NCBI GenBank assembly: GCA_013042695.1
Contig: JABDPQ010000229.1
Span: forward strand, 1 to 33,700
Direction: 5' to 3'
Length of the DNA: 33,700 bases
Origin: Desulfobacterales bacterium
GTDB lineage: Bacteria > Desulfobacterota > Desulfobulbia > Desulfobulbales > Desulfocapsaceae
Below are positions 4,046 to 33,700 of the stretch, piece after piece (position 1 is the first letter of the stretch; each line of letters begins with the position of its first letter). The position numbers and the translations under genes were made by a program. The notes below the pieces were generated by a model that saw nothing but the letters and a program-made list of their open reading frames with translations, did no database searches and was not told where the DNA came from.

Positions 4046-4933
4046 ATGAACACACTTTCCGGTAAAACAATCGGCCTCATAGGACTTGGCTTGATGGGGA
4101 GACCAATGAGCATAAATCTGCTGAAAGCCGGCGCTCGATTGATTGTTACAAACCGCTCACCGGAACCGCGTCTGGAGATAGCCAAACAGGGTGCCACAGC
4201 CTTTGAGACGCCAGCCGAAGTTGCCGGCAAGGCTGATATAATCATTTGTATTGTTTCAGATACCTCTGCCGTTGAATCAACTCTTTTTGCAGACAATGGA
4301 GTGCTTCAATCCTTGCGTGCCCAGACACTGTTTATCGATATGGGCACAACATCGATGAAGGCAACCAAAACATTTGCCCAGGCCGTTTCAGAAAGAGGAG
4401 GTTATTACGTCGATGCTCCGGTGTCCGGCGGCACTATCGGTGCAGAACAAGGTAATCTGACCATCATGGCTGGCGGCTCAGATAAAGCCTTCACCATGGC
4501 CCTGCCGATCCTTCAGGTTCTTGGAGATCGTATTACCCATGTCGGCTCAACAGGAGCAGGGCAAGTAGCCAAAGCGGCAAATCAGGTAATTGTCGGCCTG
4601 AATATCGGCGCAGTTGCAGAAGCACTTGCTCTGGCAAAAGCAGCCGGAGTCGATCCCGGTAAAGTCAGGGAAGCCCTTAAAGGAGGGTTTGCAGACTCCC
4701 GGATTCTGGAAGTACACGGCAAGCGTATGGTAGATGGGACATTTGAGCCCGGCGCCAAGTCAACAATACAGCGGAAAGATATGCAGCAGGCCCTCGAGCT
4801 GGCGGCAAGTCTTAACCTCGACATCCCGGCTACCGCCCTCAGCAGAGATCTCTATGACCGCCTCATCGCCTTAGGGAGGGCTGACCTTGATCACGCTGCT
4901 CTGTTTACCCTCTTCGATAAATCCGAAGCTTAA
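4046..4933 (+). CDS. NAD(P)-dependent 3-hydroxyisobutyrate dehydrogenase / 2-hydroxy-3-oxopropionate reductase family oxidoreductase
   Basis: It has a Rossmann N-terminus (KTIGLIGLGLMGRPMSINLLKAG), DAPVSGG, and a C-terminal helical domain typical of the family. GAGGAAA precedes the ATG. Confidence 0.85.
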   Translation: MNTLSGKTIGLIGLGLMGRPMSINLLKAGARLIVTNRSPEPRLEIAKQGATAFETPAEVAGKADIIICIVSDTSAVESTLFADNGVLQSLRAQTLFIDMGTTSMKATKTFAQAVSERGGYYVDAPVSGGTIGAEQGNLTIMAGGSDKAFTMALPILQVLGDRITHVGSTGAGQVAKAANQVIVGLNIGAVAEALALAKAAGVDPGKVREALKGGFADSRILEVHGKRMVDGTFEPGAKSTIQRKDMQQALELAASLNLDIPATALSRDLYDRLIALGRADLDHAALFTLFDKSEA

Positions 4934-5026
4934 AGAGCCTTAATGAACAACACTGCTGTCTCAATGAATAGCCAGCAATATCAACATGCTAAATCATATA
5001 TATCTACACGCCCGACTGATTTTTAA

Positions 5027-6379
5027 TTACAGCTCACCCAGAGCAGTATCCAGCACTTCAATAATATAATCGACATCCGCTTTGGTGATGCACATCGGTG
5101 GTTTGATACGTAAGACATTTCCGTAAAAACCGCCTTTTCCGGTCAATAAACCAAGATCTTTTGCACGCTCAAACACTTGGGCTGTTTCGGCTTTTGCCGG
5201 TTCTTTGGTCGTTCGATCTTTTACCAACTCCATTCCGGTCATTAAACCTTTGCCCCTGATATGACCGATAATATCGTGTTTTTCCTGCAGTCCCTTGTAG
5301 CCCTCCAGCAGGTACGCACCTACTATTTTGCAATTCTGCTGGATGTTCTCACGATCAATAACTTCCAGGACAGCCTTACCCATTGCACACGATACCGGAT
5401 TGCCGCCAAAGGTGTTGAAATGAATTCGCTCAGATAACAGCTGGGCAATTTCAGGACGTGTCGCCACCGCAGCAAGTGGTGCACCATTGCCGATTCCCTT
5501 GGCCATGGTAACGATATCGGGAATGACATCCTGGGTTTGAAACCCCCAATAGTGTTCACCGGTGCGAGCAAAACCTGTTTGCACCTCATCTGCAATACAG
5601 AGACCTCCTGCATCACGTACATGCTTATACGAAGCCTTTAAGTAGCCATCGGGAAAAATAACCGTACCGCCCACTCCCTGGATGGACTCGGCGAAAAATG
5701 CACCGACGCGACCGGGCGTACTGTGCTCTATGAGATTTTTAATATCAGCTGCATATTTCGCCCCGGCATCAGGGTCATCCTCTCCATAGGGCCCGCGATA
5801 CGGGTCTGCATTAACTGCGTGGTGTACGCCAAAGCTATGCGGATAATTGAATTTCCAGGTACTGTGCGCAGTCAGTCCCATGGCTGAGGGACTGCCGCCA
5901 TGATAACAGTTGCGCAGAGCAATGATATCATAATTACCGGTATACAGGCGGCTCATCATCATCGCTAAATCATTGGCTTCAGATCCTGAGTTGACAAAAT
6001 ATATCACACTCAGTTCTTCCGGCAGCCTTTCAGCCAGGGCTTTACCAAACTCGGCCACAGCAGGATGGTAATAGATGGTTGTCGTGTGCTGCAATGTATC
6101 AATCTGCTCTTTTCCCCTGCTGGTCACATAGGGATGGCAGTGCCCCACACTTACCGTGACGATGCCACCAATGCCGTCGAGGTACCGGCGCCCTTTTTCA
6201 TCGTATAGATATTGCATTGATCCTTCGACGATCATGATCGGTCTTTGATAGAACGTCAGCAAGGCAGGTGACAGATAGGTTTTCCTCATCTTCGCTACTT
6301 CTTCATAACGGGGTCCTTCATAAGGTTTCGGACAATGGTCAAATGGCGGCAGTTCAGGGACGCTTAGCTGACGATTCAT
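5027..6379 (-). CDS. Class-III PLP aminotransferase (AGXT2 / beta-alanine-pyruvate transaminase-like)
   Basis: A 450-aa ORF with class-III patterns: [18 protein letters not shown]..., [34 protein letters not shown] (PLP lysine). AAGAGGAG RBS. Confidence 0.85.
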
Positions 6380-6550
6380 ATTCTAGAGCACTCCTCTTGA
6401 TGAGAGTTATCAATAAGATACGTTAACGAGTTATGGCGTTATGCATACAACTTTTTGTAAAGAATTTCTGCTTAAAAATGAAGAAGAACCGGGGAAGGAA
6501 CAACAGATAAATGACAAGTTGGCCTTCGTTTTACAAACTCTTCTCATTTA

Positions 6551-7351
6551 TCAGGAAACAATCGTCCCAGCCCTCACACCTTTAAGAAAGTTCATGCAAT
6601 AGTCATCATTGCCATTAAGCATTTCAGAGGTCCTTACACAGGCCATCAAAGCGCTGTCAAGTGGATCCATAATTGCTGAGTCCATACCAACCGCCATCAT
6701 GAAACTGAGGAACGTCCGATTGACGATCCGACGCTGGGGTAATCCATAGCTGATATTGGACAAGCCACCGGTGACATGAACGCCTTCAAGCTCAGTGGTA
6801 ATTGCTTTCACCGCAGCCATAGCCATCCTGCAGTTATTGGTATCAACACCTACGGGCTGGATAAGCGGATCGATAAAAATGTCTTCATGTTTAAAGCCGA
6901 TTCGCCCCAGCTCGCCTACCAGCCTGTGGGCACGAGAGACGATATCGTCGACTGAACGAGGCATCCCTGAATCATCCATGCAAAGGGCAATAATTCTACA
7001 CTCTTTACCTTGAAGATAAGCAAACATAGGTTCAAAACGATCTTTTTCCAGGCTGATCGAATTTACCAACGGTTTTTGAGAAACAAGCCCATAGGCAATT
7101 TCAAGAACATCCGGATCCGGGCTGTCGAGACACAAAGGGAGATCGGTCGCCTTCTGGATTACCTCGAGCAGCCATTTCATATCCTCTGTTTCATGACCTA
7201 TGCGGGCGCCGGCGTTGACGTCAATATAGGTTGCCCCTGCCTCTGCCTGCTGGATGACATCATCTTGAATGTAGTCGGCATCACGGTCTGCAACCGCAGC
7301 CTGCACCATTTTCAAGGTCGTATTGATGCGCTCACCAATAATAGTAAACAT
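6551..7351 (-). CDS. Methyltetrahydrofolate:corrinoid methyltransferase (pterin-binding, AcsE/MeTr-like)
   Basis: A 266-aa ORF. MFTIIGERIN...YIDVNAG...CLDSPDP...NSISLE...IDPLIQPV...GLSNISYGLPQRRIVNRTFL lines up along its whole length with the Moorella MeTr sequence as I remember it. Confidence 0.85.
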   Translation of the reverse strand: MFTIIGERINTTLKMVQAAVADRDADYIQDDVIQQAEAGATYIDVNAGARIGHETEDMKWLLEVIQKATDLPLCLDSPDPDVLEIAYGLVSQKPLVNSISLEKDRFEPMFAYLQGKECRIIALCMDDSGMPRSVDDIVSRAHRLVGELGRIGFKHEDIFIDPLIQPVGVDTNNCRMAMAAVKAITTELEGVHVTGGLSNISYGLPQRRIVNRTFLSFMMAVGMDSAIMDPLDSALMACVRTSEMLNGNDDYCMNFLKGVRAGTIVS

Positions 7352-7392
7352 AGATCACCTTCTGATTTGCTCCACTCACCATTGATTCATTC

Positions 7393-8025
7393 TCAGGCAA
7401 TAATAGCTTTGGCCATCTTACTTGCCGAGCCTGCATCAGGAGCATAACCGTCAGCCCCGATCTCATCGGCGAAAGCCTGGTTTACCGGAGCGCCACCAAT
7501 CAGGATCTTGAGGTTTTCCCTGACCCCTGAAGCATCAATGGCTTCAACCGTTTTCTTCAACATTGGCATGGTTGTGGTCAACAGTGCTGAAAGTCCGAGG
7601 ATTTCAGGCTGGTTTTTTTTAATCGCCTCGATGAAAATCTCAGGCTCCACGTCAACGCCAAGATCAACGACCTCAAAACCTGCACTCTCGAGCATCATGA
7701 CAACCAGGTTCTTGCCAATATCATGGAGATCACCCTTCACCGTACCGATTACGATTGTGCCGGCACTGCTGGATTCTCCCTCCCCAAGATGCGGTTTAAG
7801 CACCTCAACGGCAGCCCCCATGGCACGGGCGGACATTAATACTTCCGGGATAAACATTTCCCCGCTGCCCATCTTCTCGCCTACCAGATCCATGCCAGCA
7901 ATGAGCTCATCGTTGAGAATTTCCTGCGCCGCTCTTCCTGCTGCCAGCGCTTCGTTTACCAAGGCGATGAGGGTTTGGTCGTCACCCTCCATCAGGGTTT
8001 GAGTAATTTTGCTGATTTCAGACAT
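7393..8025 (-). CDS. Cobalamin-binding corrinoid protein (MtaC/MtbC/MttC-like)
   Basis: It has an N-terminal helical cap followed by a B12-binding domain. The DxHxxG motif (GDLHDIGKN), SxL (LGLSALLTTT) and GG (ILIGGAP) are all present. AAGGA RBS. Confidence 0.9.
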   Translation of the reverse strand: MSEISKITQTLMEGDDQTLIALVNEALAAGRAAQEILNDELIAGMDLVGEKMGSGEMFIPEVLMSARAMGAAVEVLKPHLGEGESSSAGTIVIGTVKGDLHDIGKNLVVMMLESAGFEVVDLGVDVEPEIFIEAIKKNQPEILGLSALLTTTMPMLKKTVEAIDASGVRENLKILIGGAPVNQAFADEIGADGYAPDAGSASKMAKAIIA

Positions 8026-8060
8026 AACTTATCCTTTTAATGGTTCAAAATTTCTTTGAG

Positions 8061-8216
8061 CTACAACTGCGAATAGCCGACATATTCCTGGGTAGCCGTA
8101 AAAAACGCCAGGACATTTTCCACAGGGTTATCATAACCGACATTATAACAGGGCGCCAGAATATAGCCGCCGTTTGTACCGAGATCATTGACCCGCCGCA
8201 TTACCTCCAGCTTCAT
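8061..8216 (-). pseudogene. 51-codon C-terminal remnant of a URO-D-family (MtaA/MtbA-like) corrinoid methyltransferase
   Basis: My translation is MKLEVMRRVNDLGTNGGYILAPCYNVGYDNPVENVLAFFTATQEYVGYSQL*. This matches the conserved C-terminal GGYIL..GC.i..dtP.EN+.a+ block of URO-D-type methyltransferases. The frame is closed by a TGA 7 codons upstream of the ATG and by a TAA a further 10 codons up. It ends 35 nt before the corrinoid protein start, where a substrate methyltransferase gene would sit. Confidence 0.5.
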
Positions 8217-8355
8217 TTCATCAACGCAGGCACATCATGCACACGGGAAACATGTTTTAAGTGCAATTAATCATATGGTATTCTATCCTAGAAGAGGAAG
8301 AGGTTTTCTATCTCTGCCCTCGCGTGGGCCTCTCAGCAACCATGGGAATAAAGAT

Positions 8356-14050: not shown

Positions 14051-15316
14051 CTATCTGTGCAGATTCTCTGCACAAATCACATCTATACCAGCCCGGGTAA
14101 GGGCTTCGGCCGTGCGGTTTATTGCGTCATGTTTGTCCATGTAGTTCTGCTCGAGAGCTTCCATCAAACCCTGGGCAAGAATCTCTTCTTTGGGAAGAAA
14201 GTATTCCAATATATCGGAGACATGCACGCGAGTTTGATCCACCTCAGGATCACCACCTTCATGCTTCGCTGAAATATTCGGCACTGTTGCGGCAACTTCC
14301 ACGAGTTCATCACGCCTCAAGTAAGGCTGACGGACAATATGTTTAATCGGTTCAGTGATATGATGCTCAAAACGAACTAGTTCAGTTTGATTCAGTGCAC
14401 GTCTGATTGTATCGCTTTCGATAATTGTTTGATTATTAACCGAGTTTGAAAAATTAAATCCGATCAAACTGCTAGAACCATCGTCGCGCCCGAACATGCG
14501 GCTGCCGATGAGTGTCCATAGCACGGCATAAGGATTGTCGTTGCCCATGAAAACAGAGATTTTAAATTCCATATCAACCCCGAGTTTATGGAGCAAGTAA
14601 CCTAATAAGACCGTTCCAGGATTGATGTTAAGCACCTGGCGGATACCGTAAGTGGTAAAATAGTACAAGTATTCATCAATCCATTTGAGTGGGTAGTCAT
14701 TGGGCTGGCCGATACCACCAAAATAGCCGGTGATTGTCTCGGGGCCACCCAGATGAACGTTGGATCCATCGGTACCTTTTGTATCAAGGGTCTCAACATA
14801 GCTTGCTCCGATAATTCTCATAGCGGCTGCAACGGCCAAAATATCGCCGTCATCAGCCTCCTGCTCCTTCATTGCTCGTACGCGGATATAACGGCCAGGC
14901 ATGAGCTCACCATGCTTAATAGAATGTTTGGCTTGAGTTATCAGCCAGGGGAAAAACTGGAGTGCTGAGATTTCCAAGGTCACCGCATTATCAGTGTTGA
15001 ACGTCATTTTATCGGCCTTACCACCAAGTATTTTACGCCGGTAATCGGGCATCGAGATGAACGCTCTATTCTGACGCTGCTCCAGCAGCCAGTCTAGGTC
15101 TGCACCATAGGGCGATCGCTGTTCTTTCAACCGTTTCATCAGGTTGCTAAGATCACCGGCCTCAAGCGCTTTTCGATTAATTTCATCAACTCCTCCATAC
15201 TTCTCAATCAGCTCCAGCAAACGAGTGATCAGAGGATTCTCAGGGTCCAGCAGGTAACGGTTGATTTCCTCCAGCCGTTCGGTAGGAATCTGCAATCGGC
15301 TTCTTATATCAGACAT
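14051..15316 (-). CDS. Conserved-looking hypothetical protein, 421 aa, function unknown
   Basis: A long open frame with normal composition and a strong GAGAGAGGAA RBS before the ATG at 15316 (the ORF-track start is a GTG 17 codons upstream). I recognise no catalytic motif. Confidence refers to it being coding, not to any function. Confidence 0.7.
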   Translation of the reverse strand: MSDIRSRLQIPTERLEEINRYLLDPENPLITRLLELIEKYGGVDEINRKALEAGDLSNLMKRLKEQRSPYGADLDWLLEQRQNRAFISMPDYRRKILGGKADKMTFNTDNAVTLEISALQFFPWLITQAKHSIKHGELMPGRYIRVRAMKEQEADDGDILAVAAAMRIIGASYVETLDTKGTDGSNVHLGGPETITGYFGGIGQPNDYPLKWIDEYLYYFTTYGIRQVLNINPGTVLLGYLLHKLGVDMEFKISVFMGNDNPYAVLWTLIGSRMFGRDDGSSSLIGFNFSNSVNNQTIIESDTIRRALNQTELVRFEHHITEPIKHIVRQPYLRRDELVEVAATVPNISAKHEGGDPEVDQTRVHVSDILEYFLPKEEILAQGLMEALEQNYMDKHDAINRTAEALTRAGIDVICAENLHR

Positions 15317-15505
15317 AGTTCCTCTCTCAAGCAATAGAGCCACTTGCAAAACGCCCTTTTCGTTCACCCTCTGCGTTATGCTTAAATTTTTATCCTCGGA
15401 ATAGCAATTATATGCCTGCGGAAACTATTTTTCGCAGGCCTTGACTGTGAACGAAAATCATCATTTTGCCAAAGGCTCAATAGATTATTGTTGAAAATCA
15501 TATAA

Positions 15506-17095: not shown

Positions 17096-17704
17096 TTATG
17101 ATGAACAAATAAGTTTTCCGGCAAGAAGCGTTCCGGTCATTGCCAGGCATTCCATATCAAGAAAATATTGTGCCGTTGCTTTGTACAGGATGGAGCAGGT
17201 TGCCTCAAAGAGATCATCCTGGTCATTGAAATTGACGATCACAGGAATTCTTGGTAAGGCATAAAAGAGCAGGGAAAGATCGTATGAAGCATCCTCCCTG
17301 ATCTCTGCTCCCAATTCGTCTGCACGTTCTCTAAAGCGCTCAAGCTTTCCTGAGTAGGTGGATTCTATGATCTTGTTTGTGTTTGTCGTGAAATATGAGA
17401 TGAGAGGAGCTGAATTGCGAAATTCCCGGTAGGTCATCAATCGATTTTGCTGAGGTGGAATTTCAGCAGGACAGCTAAGAACATATTTGCACAGGATAAC
17501 GCTCACGGCCGCTGCGACCTCCCCGCCATGACAATCAACGATGGTATCACCCGATACAGCATATGTTTTATTGTAAAGCGGCACGATTAAGGCGTCTTCT
17601 GAGATACTGACGCCGAGCAGATCAGCACGTGAGAGGTAATCGATGTTTTTAATCTCACCAAGGTAACGACGATAGGTTTCTTCGAAGACCGGTGCCTGCG
17701 CCAT
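17096..17704 (-). CDS. DUF3786-family protein (short form, no Fe-S N-terminal domain)
   Basis: A 202-aa ORF that is collinear with the C-terminal 200 aa of the 22995..23807 product: ...YREFRNS / SFRELRGG..., PRIPVIVNFNDQDDLFEATCSILY / PKVPLMICYWKKDEGMGSSLNVFF. The family name is from memory. Confidence 0.7.
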   Translation of the reverse strand: MAQAPVFEETYRRYLGEIKNIDYLSRADLLGVSISEDALIVPLYNKTYAVSGDTIVDCHGGEVAAAVSVILCKYVLSCPAEIPPQQNRLMTYREFRNSAPLISYFTTNTNKIIESTYSGKLERFRERADELGAEIREDASYDLSLLFYALPRIPVIVNFNDQDDLFEATCSILYKATAQYFLDMECLAMTGTLLAGKLICSS

Positions 17705-17705
17705 G

Positions 17706-17888
17706 TTATTCAGAACCTTTAAGCCGTACTAATTCATTAAGAAGCGCGTCCCGCTCATCTTCGAGCTCGAGCAGATCCATCATTACCGGCGGTTTTATTG
17801 AATGAGCCGGTAGCCGTTTTTGGGTCTCGGCAATTTCTTCTTCCAGCTTCTTCAGTCTACTTTCCAGATTGTCGCGGTTTTGGCTCAT
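17706..17888 (-). CDS. Small coiled-coil protein (60 aa) with an LPAHSIKP...LEDERD motif
   Basis: Its start overlaps the upstream stop (ATGA at 17885..17888), and its stop is 1 nt from the DUF3786 start, so translational coupling supports it as a real gene. I recall the motif from small deltaproteobacterial proteins that are often mis-annotated as histidine kinase. Confidence 0.55.
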   Translation of the reverse strand: MSQNRDNLESRLKKLEEEIAETQKRLPAHSIKPPVMMDLLELEDERDALLNELVRLKGSE

Positions 17889-18304
17889 TGAAGACTTTTG
17901 ATATGTGCTTCGATCTCATTGCAGATGAGATTACGCTCAGCAGCAGTGGGTGGTCTTCTGTCTATACGATAAAAATGATTGTCACCAAGCCGGTTGCTTC
18001 GGGTGAAGACGACAACTTCATAACGATCCTTAGTCGTCAGTTTCTCTGCCCAGAGCACTCGCTCCAGATCAAGAGAAAAATCAGTACAGACATGTTTGGC
18101 AAATTTTTCCGGATTAGCCGAGATTGAATGACCATGGCCGGTCTCTGAAAATACACACAGGTAGGGTTTGAGAAACTTGACGCCTGGTTGATGGGCCTGA
18201 AGATTTATAATCAGCAGGTTATAGGAACCGGCAAACCAGGCGATCGGATCACGATCTCCATGTCTCTTTCCATCCCAGCTATAGGTACCGTTAAAGATAT
18301 ACAT
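17885..18304 (-). CDS. Hypothetical protein (139 aa), first gene after cooS
   Basis: The ORF-track start at 18313 is a TTG that directly abuts GGAGAG. The ATG at 18304 lies 9 nt after that RBS, so I prefer it. I recognise no family. Confidence 0.55.
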   Translation of the reverse strand: MYIFNGTYSWDGKRHGDRDPIAWFAGSYNLLIINLQAHQPGVKFLKPYLCVFSETGHGHSISANPEKFAKHVCTDFSLDLERVLWAEKLTTKDRYEVVVFTRSNRLGDNHFYRIDRRPPTAAERNLICNEIEAHIKSLQ

Positions 18305-18347
18305 ACGATACAACTCTCCACGACACGCAGGCGGTCAATCAGAAGCA

Positions 18348-18382
18348 GTTCCGGATCTCACCTGCTTGGAAAGATCCGGAAC
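18348..18382 (-). promoter_or_regulatory. Perfect 11-bp stem-loop in the cooS-downstream spacer
   Basis: GTTCCGGATCT (18348..18358) and AGATCCGGAAC (18372..18382) are exact reverse complements around a 13-nt loop. It lies 15 nt after the cooS stop. No U-run follows on the minus strand, so it is not a classical intrinsic terminator. Confidence 0.5.
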
Positions 18383-18396
18383 GCAAGGTATTATTA

Positions 18397-20358
18397 TCAG
18401 GCTGTTGCCTCCAGGGCTCGACGATCAGCCATATCGAGCAGCACGCGTTCTCTTGCTTTATCAATTCCAAGCTCAGCACGTTTCTTATCGATATGGGCAA
18501 TCATGATTCGGGCCATCTCGTGAGGAGTATCAGCAAACCCCCACTTACCAAACCCTTTACCCTCAAGTTCCTCAAACAGATGCTTCTCGAATCTTGTTGC
18601 TTTGGTGATCGGGAAGGTGTGACCAAAAACGGTAAAGACGCCCGAAGCGACAAAATATTGTCCAATGGCGATCGCCTTCTCACTCATCCACTCAGGTGCA
18701 CAACCGGCAACGGGCAAATCAGCAATGGCGTCGCCTAAGCCCCCCGTTTTAACCATTTCCGAGACCGCCATCAAAATCCTGCTGTTATCAACACAGGCGC
18801 CCAGACCAAGTATCGGTGGAATACCAACAGTCTCACATACCTCTGCCAACCCTTGACCGGCAAGTGCCGCTGCACCCGGCGTTGTCAAGCCGGCTTTGGC
18901 AAGTGCCATCTGCGAACAGCCGGTCTGCACGACCAGGACATCGTTTTTTATCAGCTCCTTGACCAGCTCGACATGCGAGAAGTCCTGTTTTGAACGCGGG
19001 TTGGTGCAGCCGACGACACCGGCAACGCCCCTGATGCGCCCATTTATAATATTATCATTGAGTGGTTCATAGCCACCCCTAAATGAACCTCCGAGCATAT
19101 ATTTGATGTATTCGTGCGAAAAGCCATGAACCCCTTTGGCGACGTTACGTGGGATTTCTATAGCCGCAGACCGGTTTTTGTACCGGGAAATTGCCTTGAT
19201 GATGATCTCATCAGTGCATTTCATCGGGTCATGTTCGTCGAGTTCGATGTGCAGAGCATTTTCGATTTTGGCTCGATAGTTTGTGGTAATGAACTCGGTA
19301 TCATAACAGCCGGCGACTTTATGCAGGTCCTGCTTAATACACTGGATATCAACGGTCATTGCATCAACCGCGCCCGTGACAAGGGCAGCTTCAGTTGACG
19401 AGAAGTTACCTGCGTGCGGTATGCCATGTCGTGAAAGCACATCAAGACCTGAACAGCACATACCGACCAGGTTCAGCCCTTTAGCCCCGGCGTCAGTAGC
19501 CATTTTTTTAATTGACGGTGCATCAGCTGAGATCATCATGGCTTCAAGCAGAATCGGTTCATGGCCATGAACAATAATATTTACATGATCTTCCTTCAAT
19601 ACTCCCATGTCTACGGATACTTCAACCGGAGAGGGTGTGCCAAAAAGAATATCGGAGATGTCAGTTGAAACCATTGAACCACCCCAACCGTCAGCCAGGG
19701 CCGTACGGGAAATCTGTTTAGTGATGTTCTCATAATCCTGGTCAACTCCCATGGCAGATCGATGCATCATCTCCATGATCTCCCGCATAGCCCCCCGGGG
19801 CACAATGCCTTCGCGCCGCCATGTTTCCAGGGTTTGTTCCGGTACTCTCTTTACCAGTGGAATTTCACCTTCTACCTGGGTGTAGGTCATTTCCAATGCT
19901 TCATAGACGTCTGTGGCAATCTCCTTGATAGACCTGCCATCAACCTCGATGTCAAGTGATTCAGCCACCTCCTTTAATTTCATGGTATCTTTGATCTCAA
20001 AATCGGTAACCGTTCCCTCAATTACCCCTCGAAAGAGATCAAGCATTGCCATACCGTGGTCGGTGTGTGCCGCCGTTCCTGCTGCTACCATTCTACCGAA
20101 ATTTCTCGCTGCAATCGTGTCTATGGTTGCCCCACAGACACCAACACGCTTATAGGGATCGCTCGGGTTCATACGACACGGTCCCATAGAGCAGTGCTTA
20201 CAACAGGCAGAATCGGCACCAATCGGACAAGGCTTCACTTCCTCCGATCGATCAAAAAATAGTTCCACCCCATCCCTGCGGGCTTTAAGAATCATCTGCT
20301 GGGTGGATTCACAAATAGTAATGTCTTCTGGTCGAATTAATTGTTTAGGCTTTGCCAT
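18397..20358 (-). CDS. cooS: Anaerobic Ni-Fe-S carbon monoxide dehydrogenase catalytic subunit
   Basis: It has the N-terminal cluster motif CPIGADSACCKHCSMGPCRMNP and CooS blocks throughout (HGHEP, GMCCSG, VGCTNPR, GACVDNSR). I set the start at the ATG at 20358, which has a GGGGGAGGAG RBS. The 26 upstream codons in the ORF track have none. Confidence 0.92.
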   Translation of the reverse strand: MAKPKQLIRPEDITICESTQQMILKARRDGVELFFDRSEEVKPCPIGADSACCKHCSMGPCRMNPSDPYKRVGVCGATIDTIAARNFGRMVAAGTAAHTDHGMAMLDLFRGVIEGTVTDFEIKDTMKLKEVAESLDIEVDGRSIKEIATDVYEALEMTYTQVEGEIPLVKRVPEQTLETWRREGIVPRGAMREIMEMMHRSAMGVDQDYENITKQISRTALADGWGGSMVSTDISDILFGTPSPVEVSVDMGVLKEDHVNIIVHGHEPILLEAMMISADAPSIKKMATDAGAKGLNLVGMCCSGLDVLSRHGIPHAGNFSSTEAALVTGAVDAMTVDIQCIKQDLHKVAGCYDTEFITTNYRAKIENALHIELDEHDPMKCTDEIIIKAISRYKNRSAAIEIPRNVAKGVHGFSHEYIKYMLGGSFRGGYEPLNDNIINGRIRGVAGVVGCTNPRSKQDFSHVELVKELIKNDVLVVQTGCSQMALAKAGLTTPGAAALAGQGLAEVCETVGIPPILGLGACVDNSRILMAVSEMVKTGGLGDAIADLPVAGCAPEWMSEKAIAIGQYFVASGVFTVFGHTFPITKATRFEKHLFEELEGKGFGKWGFADTPHEMARIMIAHIDKKRAELGIDKARERVLLDMADRRALEATA

Positions 20359-20697
20359 GGCTCCTCCCCCTGGAAGGTTTTTGTGGGTGAACTTTCCTGA
20401 AAATGCCTGGAAAGCATATGATTTTTTTTCGTACACTCAGTAAATTGGAATGTGGATATCTCCAATATTGAGAATTATTCTCATATAGAACACTATAATA
20501 CCGCCACATTGTGGTAATGTCAAATAGAAAAAGATCGGAAAAAATAAAGATAAACGCTGAAAAATAACCAGATAGCCAAACGAAGGGAATCGTCAACTTT
20601 ATGGCGACCCAACAGTTAAATTGACCAACTCTACGAATAGCATAACACCTTTCTGCAGCAGTAGCAGGAAAACCGATATTGGCAGGGGATGAAAAAA

Positions 20698-29770: not shown

Positions 29771-29817
29771 AACCAAAATCACTGATATCTTTTTAAAAGA
29801 GGATTCGAGTGTTATTT

Positions 29818-30744
29818 TCACTCAAGAAACAACTGATTCCACTCTTTTAATTGTGTCACTGTTACACCTACCCCACCGCACACAATGATGACAATATTCT
29901 GTCTGTCACTCAGCACATCAGCCTCATTGTAAACCACAGAGAGGCTGGCACCACAGGCGGGCTCAACCAATATTCTATGATCTTCAAGAAAACGGTTGCA
30001 ACCATCCAGCGCATCTTTATCAGATACGACGTAGTTATAGATCTGATGCTCATTGCGCAGCTCAAAGGCACGTTTTGCTACCTTTTTGGCACCAAGTGAT
30101 GTTGCAATACTGTCGATTCCATCTATGGCGATATGTTCATTTGCTCTACAAGCAGCAGAAAAGCAGTCAGCACCGACGGTCTCGACGGCAACGACGGGGA
30201 CATCATGCCATGTATGTCGTTTCAAGCCTTCAACGACACCGCATAAAAGTCCTCCCCCTCCCACAGACAAGACAATGACATCAGGCCGCACTCCTGTCTT
30301 ATAGATTTCATCTACCAAAGAGATATGGCCTTCCCAAATTGGTGGATCATCAAACGGATGTATGTATGCGGCCTTGTCCTGAGCAATTAACAATGCCCGC
30401 TGATGCGCTTCATCCCAATTCTTGCCGTGGACGATAACTTCTGCTCCTTCTCGTTTGATTAAGTCAATGGCCCTTTTCTTTGTCGTTTGCGGAACAACAA
30501 CGGTAACAGAAGTTCCCAACAACCGACCGGCATGAGCAACCGCTAAACCAGCATTCCCACCTGATGAAGAGACGAGTGAAGTCGCCCCATCCTCAAGATA
30601 CTTTTTACAGGCAAAGCCAATTCCTCTGGCTTTAAACGAACCGCATGGCTGCATTGCTTCAAGCTTCAGCCATACACGAGCATCTAAACCTGCACCCACT
30701 GACAGAGATTCAATCAATGGTGTGTTGCTATATAAATCATTCAT
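29818..30744 (-). CDS. PLP-dependent L-serine/L-threonine dehydratase (tryptophan-synthase-beta fold)
   Basis: It has the PLP lysine motif GSFKARG, SSGGNAG and the glycine loop SVGGGGL. GGAG RBS. Confidence 0.85.
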   Translation of the reverse strand: MNDLYSNTPLIESLSVGAGLDARVWLKLEAMQPCGSFKARGIGFACKKYLEDGATSLVSSSGGNAGLAVAHAGRLLGTSVTVVVPQTTKKRAIDLIKREGAEVIVHGKNWDEAHQRALLIAQDKAAYIHPFDDPPIWEGHISLVDEIYKTGVRPDVIVLSVGGGGLLCGVVEGLKRHTWHDVPVVAVETVGADCFSAACRANEHIAIDGIDSIATSLGAKKVAKRAFELRNEHQIYNYVVSDKDALDGCNRFLEDHRILVEPACGASLSVVYNEADVLSDRQNIVIIVCGGVGVTVTQLKEWNQLFLE

Positions 30745-30889: not shown

Positions 30890-32176
30890 TCATGATGCGG
30901 ATAGCATCTCGTTGTCAGTACTTTTTGCTTCTTCATAATCAGTTTTGATAGTGAAATAAACTGTTATCAAGATGAATAGGGCCGAAAAACCAAAGAGTAA
31001 TTTATACGAGTCTTCCTGCATGAAATGCAGATAATCAAGCATCTTTCCGAAAACAAGTGGATAGCCTGCGGTTATCGGCAACGTAATAATCGGCGCCAGG
31101 GCGAAATATGAGGTGGCATCTGTTTTGTCGGCGAATTTCTTCACCGATGGCGGATAAACCATATTCCTGATCGCCCTGACAAAACCGAGCATATAGCTGA
31201 TCAGGAAAAAAGTGATATAGCTCGGGAAAAAGATGAGCATCATAAGAAGCATCAGTGTGACACATTTGGAGAGGATAAATTTTTGTTTCAAACCGAGGAG
31301 GTTCATCGCCCCAAGAAAAATGTTCACCGTGATTGAGCCGGCATAGATGCATGCAACGAACAGACCTGCGGCGATCGCATCTGCTACCTGATAGAAGCCG
31401 GTGGCATAATTGGCATAAAACGACAACACAGTAATAATGACATAAAAATCAAGATCGGCGATCAGAAAAATTAAAAATCGGCGATTCCTGGATATCTCAA
31501 CAAAAGAACTCCTGGTGTGGTGGAAAAATGAGAGATTCTCAACTGAAGGATCATCAGAATCGGCGATTTCCTTGGTAATAATAAAACATAACGACCCGAC
31601 AATAAAAACAAGACCTGTGCAGACAAATACCCAGGCTGATGAACTCAGCGAAAATGAATATCTATCCACTACCTTGAGAATAAATAAGCTCGAGACGACT
31701 TTGCCGATATTCTGGGCCAGCATCATATAGCCAAGTCCGGGAACTGTTTTTGACTCTGAGAAAATCCTCACAAGGTAATTCAACCAGACCGGAATTGTCA
31801 GCCCCATACATATTGAAAATATTGTGTAAGATGCAAAAAAGAGCAACAGGACATGTTCTGACTGCTTCATCACCAACAGAGTCAGTCCAAAAATCAGGAT
31901 GGAAAGTGCTGAAATCAGGTGAAGAAGAAGTACGAGTGTCTTTTTCAAGCGATAAAAGCTTGAAAGGTAACTCGAGAACAGCGGGAAACAAGATATACCA
32001 ACAACAAAGAGAGCAGGTACAAGACCGATGACAAAACTTGACGCACCGAGATTCTTCAGAAAAAGCTGAAGAAATGTCGATTCAAGGACAATCGGAAATC
32101 CCAATCCCCAGAAGAATTCAACGACAGATACACCAAAGACGTTTCTTTTGAAATAATTGTCCTTATAGCTATCCAT
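30890..32176 (-). CDS. MFS-type membrane transporter
   Basis: A 428-aa ORF with about 12 hydrophobic segments split by a central charged loop (ITKEIADSDDPSVENLSFFHHTRSS). The substrate is not predictable. Confidence 0.8.
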   Translation of the reverse strand: MDSYKDNYFKRNVFGVSVVEFFWGLGFPIVLESTFLQLFLKNLGASSFVIGLVPALFVVGISCFPLFSSYLSSFYRLKKTLVLLLHLISALSILIFGLTLLVMKQSEHVLLLFFASYTIFSICMGLTIPVWLNYLVRIFSESKTVPGLGYMMLAQNIGKVVSSLFILKVVDRYSFSLSSSAWVFVCTGLVFIVGSLCFIITKEIADSDDPSVENLSFFHHTRSSFVEISRNRRFLIFLIADLDFYVIITVLSFYANYATGFYQVADAIAAGLFVACIYAGSITVNIFLGAMNLLGLKQKFILSKCVTLMLLMMLIFFPSYITFFLISYMLGFVRAIRNMVYPPSVKKFADKTDATSYFALAPIITLPITAGYPLVFGKMLDYLHFMQEDSYKLLFGFSALFILITVYFTIKTDYEEAKSTDNEMLSAS

Positions 32177-32210
32177 TCATGATTCCGGCTGGAATATTAG
32201 CCTATTCACA

Positions 32211-32912
32211 TCACAGAGCGGAAAGAATTTTTCCTATTGCCTGCGTCAGGGCCTTGCTATGTATCTTTCCTGCAAAATGAACCGGACTTTTACCATGAAT
32301 CGGATCCCAACCGGCGGGGTCAGCAAAACAGTAGAATTGCGTATCGAGACCGATCTTGCGTGCAGCATCCTCAACGGATACTCCGACTAGGCGCTGAGCG
32401 GCTTCCCATGTCGCGCCGCACGGAGCTCCACGGATTACTCTGATGGCAACAATGTTACCATCTTTAACCTCAACCTCAAACTCGGGGGCGCCAAACCGGT
32501 TGCCGTATTCGCCAAGGCTAACCTGCCTTGGAAGGCCGCATCAGGTGGGCGGGGTCAGGGCCCATTTCGTCGTGGTCTTCTTGCCTGATGAAATAATAGG
32601 GATCCCTCTCCTGGCGCATAATTCTGCAAGATCCAACGACAGATCTTTGTGAGAGAGGAAATCAAGAACAAGATCAGACGCAAGATTGTCAGGTAGCAAT
32701 GCAGAGGTATCATCAAGGACGGGGGGCAAAGGAATATCAATAGATACGACTTCTAATGATATGATATCCTTGGCGTATTTCCGCACGCCGGCAATTTTTC
32801 TTTCACCGCTGCCATTTTGCTGAAACACGGTAACTTTCTGCAGCGCTATATGATTTTTCTCATGAGACATGGGCACACCACCATGCTTTTGGTTTATCTG
32901 TATGCGGCTCAT
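32211..32912 (-). CDS. Candidate selenoprotein, DUF166/COG1810-like, with in-frame UGA (Sec) at 32543..32541
   Basis: The ORF-track ORF 32541..32930 stops at TGA, but the same frame continues without a stop for 109 codons to the TGA at 32213..32211. The read-through gives ...KKTTTKWALTPPT-U-CGLPRQVSLGEYGNRFGAPEFEVEVKDGNIVAIRVIRGAPCGATWEAAQRLVG...DPAGWDPIHGKSPVHFAGKIHSKALTQAIGKILSAL. A SECIS-like hairpin lies 9 nt downstream. The start is uncertain: the ATG at 32912 is 8 nt after the upstream stop, and the ATG at 32870 (MSHEKNHIALQKVTVF) is the alternative. The 32930 start is a TTG that overlaps the upstream gene. Confidence 0.7.
32512..32531 (-). promoter_or_regulatory. SECIS-like stem-loop CCAAGGC-AGGUUA-GCCUUGG
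   Basis: A perfect 7-bp stem with a 6-nt apical loop containing GGU. The stem begins 9 nt after the UGA and the loop 16 nt after it. This fits the bacterial SECIS geometry as I remember it. Confidence 0.5.
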
Positions 32913-32919
32913 TGAGGAC

Positions 32920-33303
32920 TCAAATGTCAAGCCTCACCCAGCGCGTACAGTACCTGTACGCCGCTTCAAGCAGCTTTTTTTTCTTACTCTCAGCATGTAA
33001 AACGACCCCAAGCTCACCGAATTGACCGCGAAAAATCACCATGCCATCAAGAAAATCCTCTGAGTTACCGTCGTGTTCAATCTGACAAGGTCCTTCCAAC
33101 AAAGTAATGTCAAGCTCATCATCCTGGCCTTGAAAATATGCCATCTGAGCAAGCGCATGAAACTCATGCTTGTCATTGGCTCCTGACCGAATAGTAATTG
33201 CCTGAATATAACCTGGTTCACTGATAGCCCGATCAGGAACAATAATTATTGACACGCACGCTTGAATGGTTCTTCCTTCAGAAGCAATTTCTATTGCATC
33301 CAT
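32920..33303 (-). CDS. Hypothetical protein (127 aa)
   Basis: An ATG-initiated ORF packed tightly between the MetE-like gene (15-nt gap) and the selenoprotein candidate. I recognise no family. Confidence 0.5.
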   Translation of the reverse strand: MDAIEIASEGRTIQACVSIIIVPDRAISEPGYIQAITIRSGANDKHEFHALAQMAYFQGQDDELDITLLEGPCQIEHDGNSEDFLDGMVIFRGQFGELGVVLHAESKKKKLLEAAYRYCTRWVRLDI

Positions 33304-33318
33304 GAGAGCGTATTTCCG

Positions 33319-33700
33319 TCACATACACTTTGATCTGACAATTGCCGATACATCTCTGGTCAACTCAAGGACTCGCAATGCTTCCGCCTCGGATACGGTC
33401 CCGGTCCCGCAGCTCGGAGTTATCAACGTCTGTTCAAATATTGTTTTCGCCGATACGCCAAGTTTTTCAATTTGTGCTGACTGCTCAAACCATTTCTCGG
33501 CAAGGGCTTCAGCTGTTTCTGAGGCAATAAATTCAGGGGCAGTGGGAACAATACCTGAGGCGATAATTCCTGCACGCTTAAAAAAAGATACCAGGTGCTG
33601 CGGATAGAGGATCAACTTGTCGAAATAGCTGTATGCATCAAAGCTGATGATATCAACGGGTGATTCGAAAAGTATCGACCACTCGGTGTTGGCACAGACG
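33319..33700 (-). CDS. Cobalamin-independent methionine synthase catalytic-domain (MetE-like) protein, C-terminal part (the gene starts beyond the right edge)
   Basis: The frame is open from the window edge: VCANTEWSILFESPVDIISFDAYSYFDKLILYPQHL...GIVPT...LITPSCGTGT...RSKCM*. The (H)xC...and P.CG.. blocks correspond to the MetE-family zinc-ligand motifs (HMCYS / PDCGLKT in E. coli MetE, from memory). Confidence 0.7.
   Translation of the reverse strand, partial: VCANTEWSILFESPVDIISFDAYSYFDKLILYPQHLVSFFKRAGIIASGIVPTAPEFIASETAEALAEKWFEQSAQIEKLGVSAKTIFEQTLITPSCGTGTVSEAEALRVLELTRDVSAIVRSKCM

Follow-up and report, generated by a model that had tools for sequence, protein, structure and literature searches.

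What does a selenoprotein of the DUF166 family do beside a small protein without a known family and a methyltransferase-like gene? The question arises at one end of contig JABDPQ010000229.1 from a Desulfobacterales bacterium (assembly GCA_013042695.1; family Desulfocapsaceae in the GTDB lineage), the 33,700-nucleotide stretch that we analysed as a whole and refer to as the window. The window is the entire contig (G000:C806 of the genome), and the four genes of interest lie at its high-coordinate end on the minus strand: a MetE-like gene, a gene for a conserved 127-aa protein (u127), the DUF166 gene dfsP, and a gene for a transporter of the major facilitator superfamily (MFS). As set out below, u127 and dfsP are best read as a conserved functional unit, i.e., a two-gene module that sits in different gene clusters of the Wood-Ljungdahl pathway, and the MetE-like (MesB-like) and MFS genes are one of several settings in which this pair is found.

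The DUF166 gene is predicted to encode the selenoprotein DfsP

When translated through an in-frame UGA codon, the dfsP open reading frame (ORF; 32211..32870, minus strand) matched the Pfam model PF02593 with 153.7 bits (cut-off of 24.4; model positions 2-220 of 221) and the NCBIfam model NF041372, named "DUF166 family (seleno)protein DfsP", with 326.8 bits (cut-off of 200; positions 1-202 of 203). The UGA codon (32541..32543, minus strand) occupies the first position of a T-[U/C]-C-G motif in which relatives carry either selenocysteine (Sec) or cysteine. Among the 80 related loci introduced below, 64 could be aligned on both flanks of this codon, and they carried TGA (49 loci), TGT (10 loci) or TGC (5 loci). 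In all 16 full-length DUF166 genes examined from other Desulfobulbales families, the vicinal pair was C-C.

A putative selenocysteine insertion sequence (SECIS) hairpin, with a 7-bp stem and the 6-nt loop AGGUUA, was identified at 32512..32531 (minus strand), its stem starting 10 nt past the UGA (i.e., with 9 nt in between). The mean minimum free energy of this region was -14.3 in TGA loci (n=50) vs. -9.4 in cysteine loci (n=15). Over 49 distinct TGA sequences, 97.1% of the cells in the stem were paired, and one pair showed compensatory changes in 17 sequences; none of 500 shuffles reached the observed values. Moreover, the genome contains the Sec machinery, namely tRNA-Sec, selA (608.7 bits) and the C-terminal part of selB (83.8 bits), which is cut by the end of its contig. 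With both the hairpin downstream of the UGA and the decoding machinery present, as is the case for bacterial selenoproteins, the gene encodes, judging from its sequence, the selenoprotein DfsP with the UGA read as Sec. The exchange of TGA for cysteine codons, the covarying hairpin and the presence of selA and tRNA-Sec therefore bear out the preliminary description of this DNA, which had already taken the gene for a selenoprotein. The Sec-containing DUF166 protein is, however, not new: the COG1810 selenoprotein of Olavius algarvensis symbionts belongs to the same family (PMC1976440), the DUF166 selenoprotein family is listed in review tables (PMC9312934, PMC13188914), and NF041372 names it as DfsP.

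The AlphaFold 2 (AF2) model of DfsP (predicted local distance difference test score, pLDDT, of 92.1) has two domains: the N-terminal one is Rossmann-like and contains a Gly-Ser-Gly-x-x-Lys loop, and the second is alpha/beta. Five Cys/Sec and two His residues (C85, U/C110, C111, C151, C181, H198 and H204) were invariant over 37 sequences. A fold search with this model recovered only the generic Rossmann-like N-terminal domain (top Z of 8.4, for CobK, tied with many others) and, for residues ~107-217, a weak resemblance to the domain at the C-terminus of CoxM-type flavoproteins (Z of 7.3-8.0), and it did not find a thioredoxin-like fold. No function was drawn from these likenesses.

u127 is a narrowly distributed family

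The gene preceding dfsP (32920..33303, minus strand) encodes u127, for which 360 homologs of 125-150 aa were collected. Neither u127 itself (searched against Pfam and NCBIfam) nor any of these homologs (Pfam) contained a known domain, and a profile search of 1.84 billion representatives yielded only 69 clusters and no fused forms. Of 201 sampled genomes of the order, 11 contained u127, and these all belong to one family. u127 is a genuine protein family whose narrow distribution is confined to a single family of the Desulfobulbales, and is a lineage-specific partner of DfsP.

The preliminary description had called for a structure prediction and fold search on the 127-aa protein. This produced a confident alpha/beta AF2 model (pLDDT of 91.5) that nothing among the solved structures matched, with a best Foldseek E-value of 0.11 against the PDB and a best VIA-align Z of 3.8 among 48,161 chains; the ESM Atlas likewise gave no usable match. 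The C-terminus of u127 is invariant, and H46, E47 and C119 are among the further invariant residues. From these conserved residues and the helix topology of the model, we infer a candidate His/His/Cys metal site. A complex prediction for DfsP and u127, using natural Cys-form DfsP homologs with u127 homologs, scored 0.01 vs. a mark of 0.32, which speaks neither for nor against a complex.

In other families of the Desulfobulbales, an ~118-aa protein without a family assignment is encoded before DUF166 and appears to be a different small partner. It was considered as a relative of u127 and rejected: it is all-helical, its sequence is unlike that of u127, and the u127 profile misses it.

The pair recurs in several Wood-Ljungdahl gene clusters

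To assess the conservation of the locus, species-representative genomes were scanned. This gave 80 related loci, every one of which carries the label of a Desulfobulbales-type or an unclassified metagenome-assembled genome. DfsP was encoded directly after u127 in 66 of these, across many genera; of the 14 others, three were cut within 320 nt and 8 were divergent loci beside a cluster with methylenetetrahydrofolate reductase (MTHFR) and Hdr-like genes. The gene that precedes u127 varies. FdhA of formate dehydrogenase (FDH), together with NuoE- and NuoF-like genes, was found there in 36/80 loci, making nuoE-like, nuoF-like, fdhA, u127, dfsP the commonest context. Judged by ORF calls, a MetE-like gene preceded u127 in 16/80 loci, and tblastn raised this to 17; in 8/80 the gene was MTHFR and in 5/80 5-formyl-tetrahydrofolate cyclo-ligase (FTHFCL). 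This survey of relatives supported the u127-DfsP link, and restricted the four-gene form to a minority of the loci.

This full order (MetE-like, u127, DfsP, MFS) occurred in 15/80 loci, with 56-72% protein identity in the C-terminal part of the MetE-like protein, and usually with acsD, acsE, a gene for a 98-aa protein and cooC just upstream. Where a MetE-like gene was present and the locus extended far enough to show an MFS gene, the latter followed DfsP in 15 of 16 cases; it did so in no locus lacking the MetE-like gene. In the four genomes with an FDH-linked pair that were examined, the MetE-like ortholog was each time found near MTHFR-like genes and without u127, DfsP or MFS; in the three of them with a single chromosome it lay 0.39-1.1 Mb away from the u127-dfsP pair.

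In 66/80 loci, at least one core Wood-Ljungdahl family was encoded within 6 kb, i.e., an FDH module (40 loci), CdhD/AcsE/CooC (16), MTHFR (10) or FTHFCL (7). Rubrerythrin was encoded in 32/80 related loci and in the window.

Two further observations were made in these neighbourhoods. The fdhA gene before u127 (~3200-5800 in L006, L007 and other FDH-context loci) appears as two ORFs separated by an in-frame TGA, which would make it a second selenoprotein gene in the same operon as dfsP. In five related loci, a gene for a 142-aa protein without a family and a DUF3786 gene follow cooC and adjoin u127-dfsP.

The window itself carries a CooS-type carbon monoxide dehydrogenase (CODH), two DUF3786 genes, MTHFR, a corrinoid protein and a methyl-tetrahydrofolate (methyl-THF):corrinoid methyltransferase, and CdhC, CdhD, AcsE and CooC are encoded on other contigs of the genome.

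The MetE-like gene resembles MesB

Only the 3' end of the MetE-like gene (126 codons plus stop; 33319..33700, minus strand) lies in the window, its ORF being open at the contig end. The N-terminal 282 aa are encoded on contig C594 of the same genome, and the last 162 nt of the window (33539-33700) overlap positions 3981-4142 of C594 at 92% DNA identity; that the contig ends inside the gene with such an imperfect overlap points to a strain mixture that broke the assembly. A public full-length protein of 355 aa (P0175) is identical to the window fragment at 123 of 126 positions. Whereas relatives have acsD-acsE-cooC upstream of the gene, C594 has genes for ABC transporters and for an isopropylmalate/homocitrate synthase-like protein there. 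A 359-aa paralog stands alone on contig C173.

The preliminary description had assigned this protein to the MetE family, a label that Pfam and NCBIfam do not return: neither the fragments nor P0175 had a match in either library. Fourteen members of the family, which comprises more than 2,700 homologs, did not match PF01717 even at E <= 10, and a search of the sequences in the PDB with the family profile returned nothing. A relative with 34% identity scored 20.6 bits against PF01717, borderline to its cut-off of 21. Alignment of the family against five short PF01717 proteins from the phylum by hhalign, however, gave a probability of 81.5% (E-value of 1.1e-5 over 237 columns) and placed the HVCAN, FDAY and PSCGTG motifs on the zinc-ligand motifs of these proteins. 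H229, C231, D250 and C326 were invariant, and the PSCGTGT motif noticed earlier was present and conserved. Since hhalign brings the zinc ligands His-x-Cys, Glu/Asp and Cys into register, the MetE label is right at the superfamily level, i.e., as remote homology to the MetE catalytic domain, even though HMM (hidden Markov model) libraries do not assign it. In the ESM Atlas, clusters retrieved with P0175 bear the automatic name "methionine synthase family", and 26% of the members of one cluster have PF01717; we treat this as a lead only.

By its sequence, then, the protein looks like a short form without a folate domain that is remotely related to the catalytic domain of MetE and has a MesB-like zinc pattern. 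Short corrinoid-using enzymes of this kind, which the preliminary description had mentioned, do exist in the literature: the available part of PMC7857596 describes the MesA-D families of short core methionine synthases, and gives for MesB zinc ligands at offsets +2, +21 and +97, with Asp replacing Glu, and a membership criterion of at least 173 bits vs. DET0516 in an organism with AcsC/AcsD. The window protein is most likely a corrinoid-dependent methionine synthase of this type that would receive its methyl group from the corrinoid iron-sulfur protein by a predicted zinc-methyltransferase chemistry. In the genome, MetH was found only as separate pieces (C726, C428, C429 and window 6641-8010, with homocysteine-binding, pterin-binding, B12-binding and activation-domain matches); no full-length metH was found there, nor any PF01717 gene at E <= 1. 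As this MetE-like family escapes Pfam, it deserves a model of its own.

The four genes probably form one operon

The gaps between the genes are 15 nt (MetE-like/u127), 7 or 49 nt (u127/dfsP) and 34 nt (dfsP/MFS), confirming the tight cluster previously described, and the arrangement recurs in related genomes. The second gap depends on the start of dfsP: 7 nt with the ATG at 32912 and 49 nt with the ATG at 32870, with the TTG at 32930 causing an overlap with u127. The ATG at 32870 is favoured because the NF041372 model starts at residue 31 of the TTG reading, ~10 residues past this ATG, and relatives align only from there. A sequence scan revealed no promoter- or terminator-like sites between the four genes on the minus strand, its overall counts not exceeding those of shuffles. 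A search for a cobalamin or SAM riboswitch upstream of the MetE-like gene gave no Rfam match at gathering score, neither here nor in six related loci.

Contigs from two metatranscriptome libraries that are 90-95% similar to the window, i.e., that come from relatives, were used as RNA evidence. One of these covers 32657-33393, spanning the start of DfsP, the whole of u127 and the 3' end of the MetE-like gene; a second covers 33148-33395, and a third (31938-32459) spans the 5' part of the MFS gene and the 3' part of dfsP, so that together they bridge all three junctions. Taken with the tight packing and the scan, these contigs suggest that the four genes are co-transcribed and probably form one operon of a Desulfocapsaceae-type bacterium; the single transcript suggested in the preliminary description is supported to that extent, by RNA that stems from relatives.

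The last of the four genes (30890..32176, minus strand) encodes a 428-aa protein that belongs to the MFS by its PF07690 (MFS_1) match of 61 bits (cut-off of 33.4), with no match to an NCBIfam subfamily or to a PDB sequence. A gene for a pyridoxal phosphate (PLP)-dependent, serine/threonine dehydratase-like protein (29818..30744, minus strand; PALP with 252.8 bits, and NF006094 with 194 bits, under its cut-off) follows 145 nt past it, and then the only terminator-like hairpin on the minus strand of the region (29805..29825); these may mark the end of the transcription unit. The dehydratase-like gene, which in the window lies between the MFS gene and an AstE/AspA-like gene, is absent from this place in related loci.

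DUF166 beyond the range of u127

DUF166 reaches far beyond the range of u127: it was present in 112 of the 201 genomes of the order sample, CdhC being present in 164, and most DUF166 genes of the order had no u127 nearby. A survey of the phylum, in which 20 DUF166 loci were fetched and the neighbours of 19 scanned by Pfam, revealed direct ties to CODH/acetyl-CoA synthase (CODH/ACS). In one bacterial genome (L120, ~4706-8285) DUF166 is inserted in a CODH/ACS operon of the archaeal type, where it separates cdhA from cdhB and overlaps the cdhA stop codon by 4 nt; a second locus (L123, ~4740-8318) has the same ORF sizes and order, as known from its ORF pattern and not from a Pfam scan. In L124, DUF166 adjoins a CooC-like ATPase and RACo. 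Three of the 19 loci (L119, L121 and L129) have DUF166 beside a fusion of FMN (flavin mononucleotide) reductase to a low-molecular-weight phosphatase domain (LMWPc) with peroxide-defence genes, the redox neighbours being AhpC, SufBD, a flavodiiron protein and rubredoxin. The remaining loci showed mixed contexts.

For an archaeal member, genetic data exist. According to the available part of a preprint (bioRxiv 10.1101/2024.03.05.583561), deletion of the DUF166 gene of Methanococcus maripaludis abolished autotrophy and CO2 fixation, a defect that was complemented in trans and rescued by acetate; the gene was cofit with CODH/ACS, and MMP_RS05055 adjoins cooC2 and the CODH/ACS operon. Our text searches found no literature on u127 or on a link between DfsP and the Wood-Ljungdahl pathway other than this preprint.

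A possible accessory role for Wood-Ljungdahl metalloenzymes

From these contexts, and as the Methanococcus genetics suggests, we infer, tentatively and at slightly below an even chance, that the four genes form one operon in which the u127-dfsP pair acts as an accessory of the Wood-Ljungdahl metalloenzymes, i.e., CODH/ACS and its corrinoid protein. The MesB-like core zinc methyltransferase would take methyl groups from the corrinoid iron-sulfur protein. The u127-dfsP pair, which is found after FDH, after the MesB-like gene in the vicinity of acsD-acsE-cooC, or close to cooC/DUF3786, would contribute DfsP as a redox or metal-centre accessory that works through (seleno)cysteine and assembles, repairs or maintains the CODH/ACS-corrinoid machinery. 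A more specific proposal, which we regard as doubtful, is that u127 and DfsP form a factor that depends on selenium and matures or repairs the Ni-Fe-S clusters of CODH/ACS, the corrinoid cobalt, or both, in which the Sec-Cys pair and the Cys/His residues of DfsP might serve as a transient metal or sulfur carrier and u127 as a metal-binding partner with a new fold and a His/His/Cys site. If true, such a factor would fill a gap among the accessory steps of an ancient pathway of carbon fixation and would explain why autotrophy needs DUF166 in a methanogen.

A number of observations weigh against the accessory role. The 80 loci are kin and not independent events, so that their counts overstate the support. 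In 11 of them u127 occurred without DfsP in spite of there being room for it (8 of these beside MTHFR), and in the order sample u127 was found in 2 genomes without any DUF166 and in 2 in which the genes are not adjacent. A comparison by hand showed 13 DUF166-positive genomes without a CdhC match, one of them 100% complete, and CdhC in 65 of the 89 DUF166-negative genomes; that DUF166 and ACS are so loosely coupled in the order speaks against a role that is obligatory. The gene order differs in other Desulfobulbales families, where DUF166 comes after an iron-containing alcohol dehydrogenase (Fe-ADH)-like gene and the unrelated all-helical ~118-aa gene (L086, L087, L092, L095, L098, L099 and also L135). 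As to the operon itself, contigs of relatives prove neither that the genes are transcribed nor that they share one transcript, the MetE-like protein is not assigned to PF01717 by any HMM library, and the split MetH-like pieces in the genome mean that the MesB-like enzyme need not be a methionine synthase.

The peroxide-defence contexts in the phylum, for their part, keep alive a more general redox role. DfsP could be a thiol/selenol oxidoreductase of general use, in the defence against oxidative stress or the reduction of disulfides, that stands near oxygen-sensitive enzymes only by gene clustering, with u127 being unrelated to it. The vicinal Sec-Cys motif is typical of redox proteins, as is the exchange of Sec and Cys, and the rubrerythrin genes in 32 loci and the window, the redox neighbours in three of the 19 phylum loci and the DUF166 genes in genomes without a CdhC match would all fit. 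However, the Methanococcus phenotype as available is specific to autotrophy and cofit with CODH/ACS, DUF166 is translationally coupled within the cdh operon in L120 (and has the same ORF pattern in L123), and the fold search with DfsP found a generic Rossmann-like N-terminal domain and no thioredoxin-like fold, making this explanation unlikely. The preliminary description had instead suggested an activation or redox module for methyl transfer. In its wider form, in which the accessory would serve corrinoid and one-carbon (C1) enzymes in redox reactions or maturation, this idea is plausible, but a module dedicated to the MetE-like methyltransferase, preserving, e.g., the activity of its zinc-thiolate site or of its corrinoid methyl donor, is very unlikely: the four-gene order with its short gaps in 15/80 loci and the RNA-library contigs across the MetE-like/u127 and u127/DfsP junctions are set against FdhA and not the MetE-like gene preceding u127 in 36/80 loci, MetE-like orthologs that lack both the pair and the MFS gene in 4/4 FDH-type genomes, a C173 paralog that stands alone, and the many DUF166 genes of the order without a nearby u127.

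The frequent position of FdhA before u127 raises the question of whether the pair serves FDH, by cofactor insertion or by sulfur/selenium supply. In NAD-dependent FDH operons, FdsC/FdsD hold the operon position that u127-dfsP would take, and the commonest context, with its Sec-split fdhA, would agree with such a service. Yet there is no FDH gene near the pair in the window and in 15-17 other loci, DUF166 is widespread without an adjacent FDH gene, and the rescue of the Methanococcus defect by acetate, as given in the available part of the preprint, points to CODH/ACS and not to FDH; we give this explanation little credence. It is also improbable that the genes share no function at all, each acting on its own and their tight spacing reflecting compaction and local rearrangement. 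The flanks of the pair do vary (FdhA, MetE-like, MTHFR, FTHFCL and others), and u127 and DfsP each occur without the other, but u127 is followed by DfsP in 66/80 loci across many genera, the four-gene form persists in 15 loci at 56-72% identity in the C-terminal part of the MetE-like protein, and nearly every context belongs to C1 metabolism.

Returning to the accessory role, the movement of the pair between FDH, ACS and MTHFR clusters narrows the search for its client to the Wood-Ljungdahl enzymes. DUF166 is widespread and, going by the available part of the preprint, has a strong knockout phenotype in a methanogen; the Sec form marks its reactive residue, and the Desulfocapsaceae version adds a conserved DfsP partner without a match among solved folds. 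Moreover, the pair is present in cultured relatives whose genomes are complete or nearly so (strains of Desulfopila, Desulfosediminicola and Desulforhopalus), which makes the question testable.

Other genes of the window

Further away in the window, the CooS-type CODH gene (TIGR01702, 573 bits) is followed by a gene for a 142-aa protein without a family, of the same family as that found near cooC in the relatives, and by a DUF3786 gene (17096-20436, minus strand). At 6551-8025 (minus strand), a corrinoid protein close to the glycine-betaine/methylamine-type MtgC/MtbC is encoded together with the methyl-THF:corrinoid methyltransferase (NF005719, 311.8 bits); this system could be a methyl donor for the MesB-like enzyme. 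A 438-aa ORF at 14051-15367 had no Pfam or NCBIfam match.

Comparison with known systems

The MetE-like protein shares with MesB (DET0516 of Dehalococcoides mccartyi; available part of PMC7857596) a length of ~350 aa, the lack of a folate-binding domain, the ligand offsets of +2/+21/+97 and the replacement of Glu by Asp. In addition, the host has genes for the corrinoid iron-sulfur protein, and in relatives the gene adjoins acsD-acsE-cooC. It differs in having no PF01717 match, its kinship being visible only by profile-profile comparison, and in that the genome also holds split MetH-like parts, a situation in which that paper suspects other functions.

DfsP itself corresponds to NF041372 and the COG1810 selenoprotein by its full-length, equivalog-level match, by the same Sec position with Cys forms, and by its SECIS hairpin. 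Nothing structural differs between them, and what the locus adds is the u127 partner and the Wood-Ljungdahl setting, both absent from the available portions of the literature naming DUF166.

MMP_RS05055 of M. maripaludis is archaeal and was compared by family and context, not by sequence; the available part of the preprint reports no u127-like gene, and its autotrophy phenotype applies to the archaeal protein only, the bacterial DfsP being known here from genes. Both nevertheless belong to the same Pfam family, and just as the archaeal gene lies near cooC2 and CODH/ACS, dfsP in the window or its relatives clusters with cooC, acsD/acsE, FDH or MTHFR.

Finally, the cdhA-DUF166-cdhB operons of other Desulfobacterota (L120, and L123 by its ORF pattern) contain the same family, tied directly to CODH/ACS. 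These are Cys forms located inside the operon of the enzyme and without u127, whereas the window gene is a Sec form in a small operon of its own.

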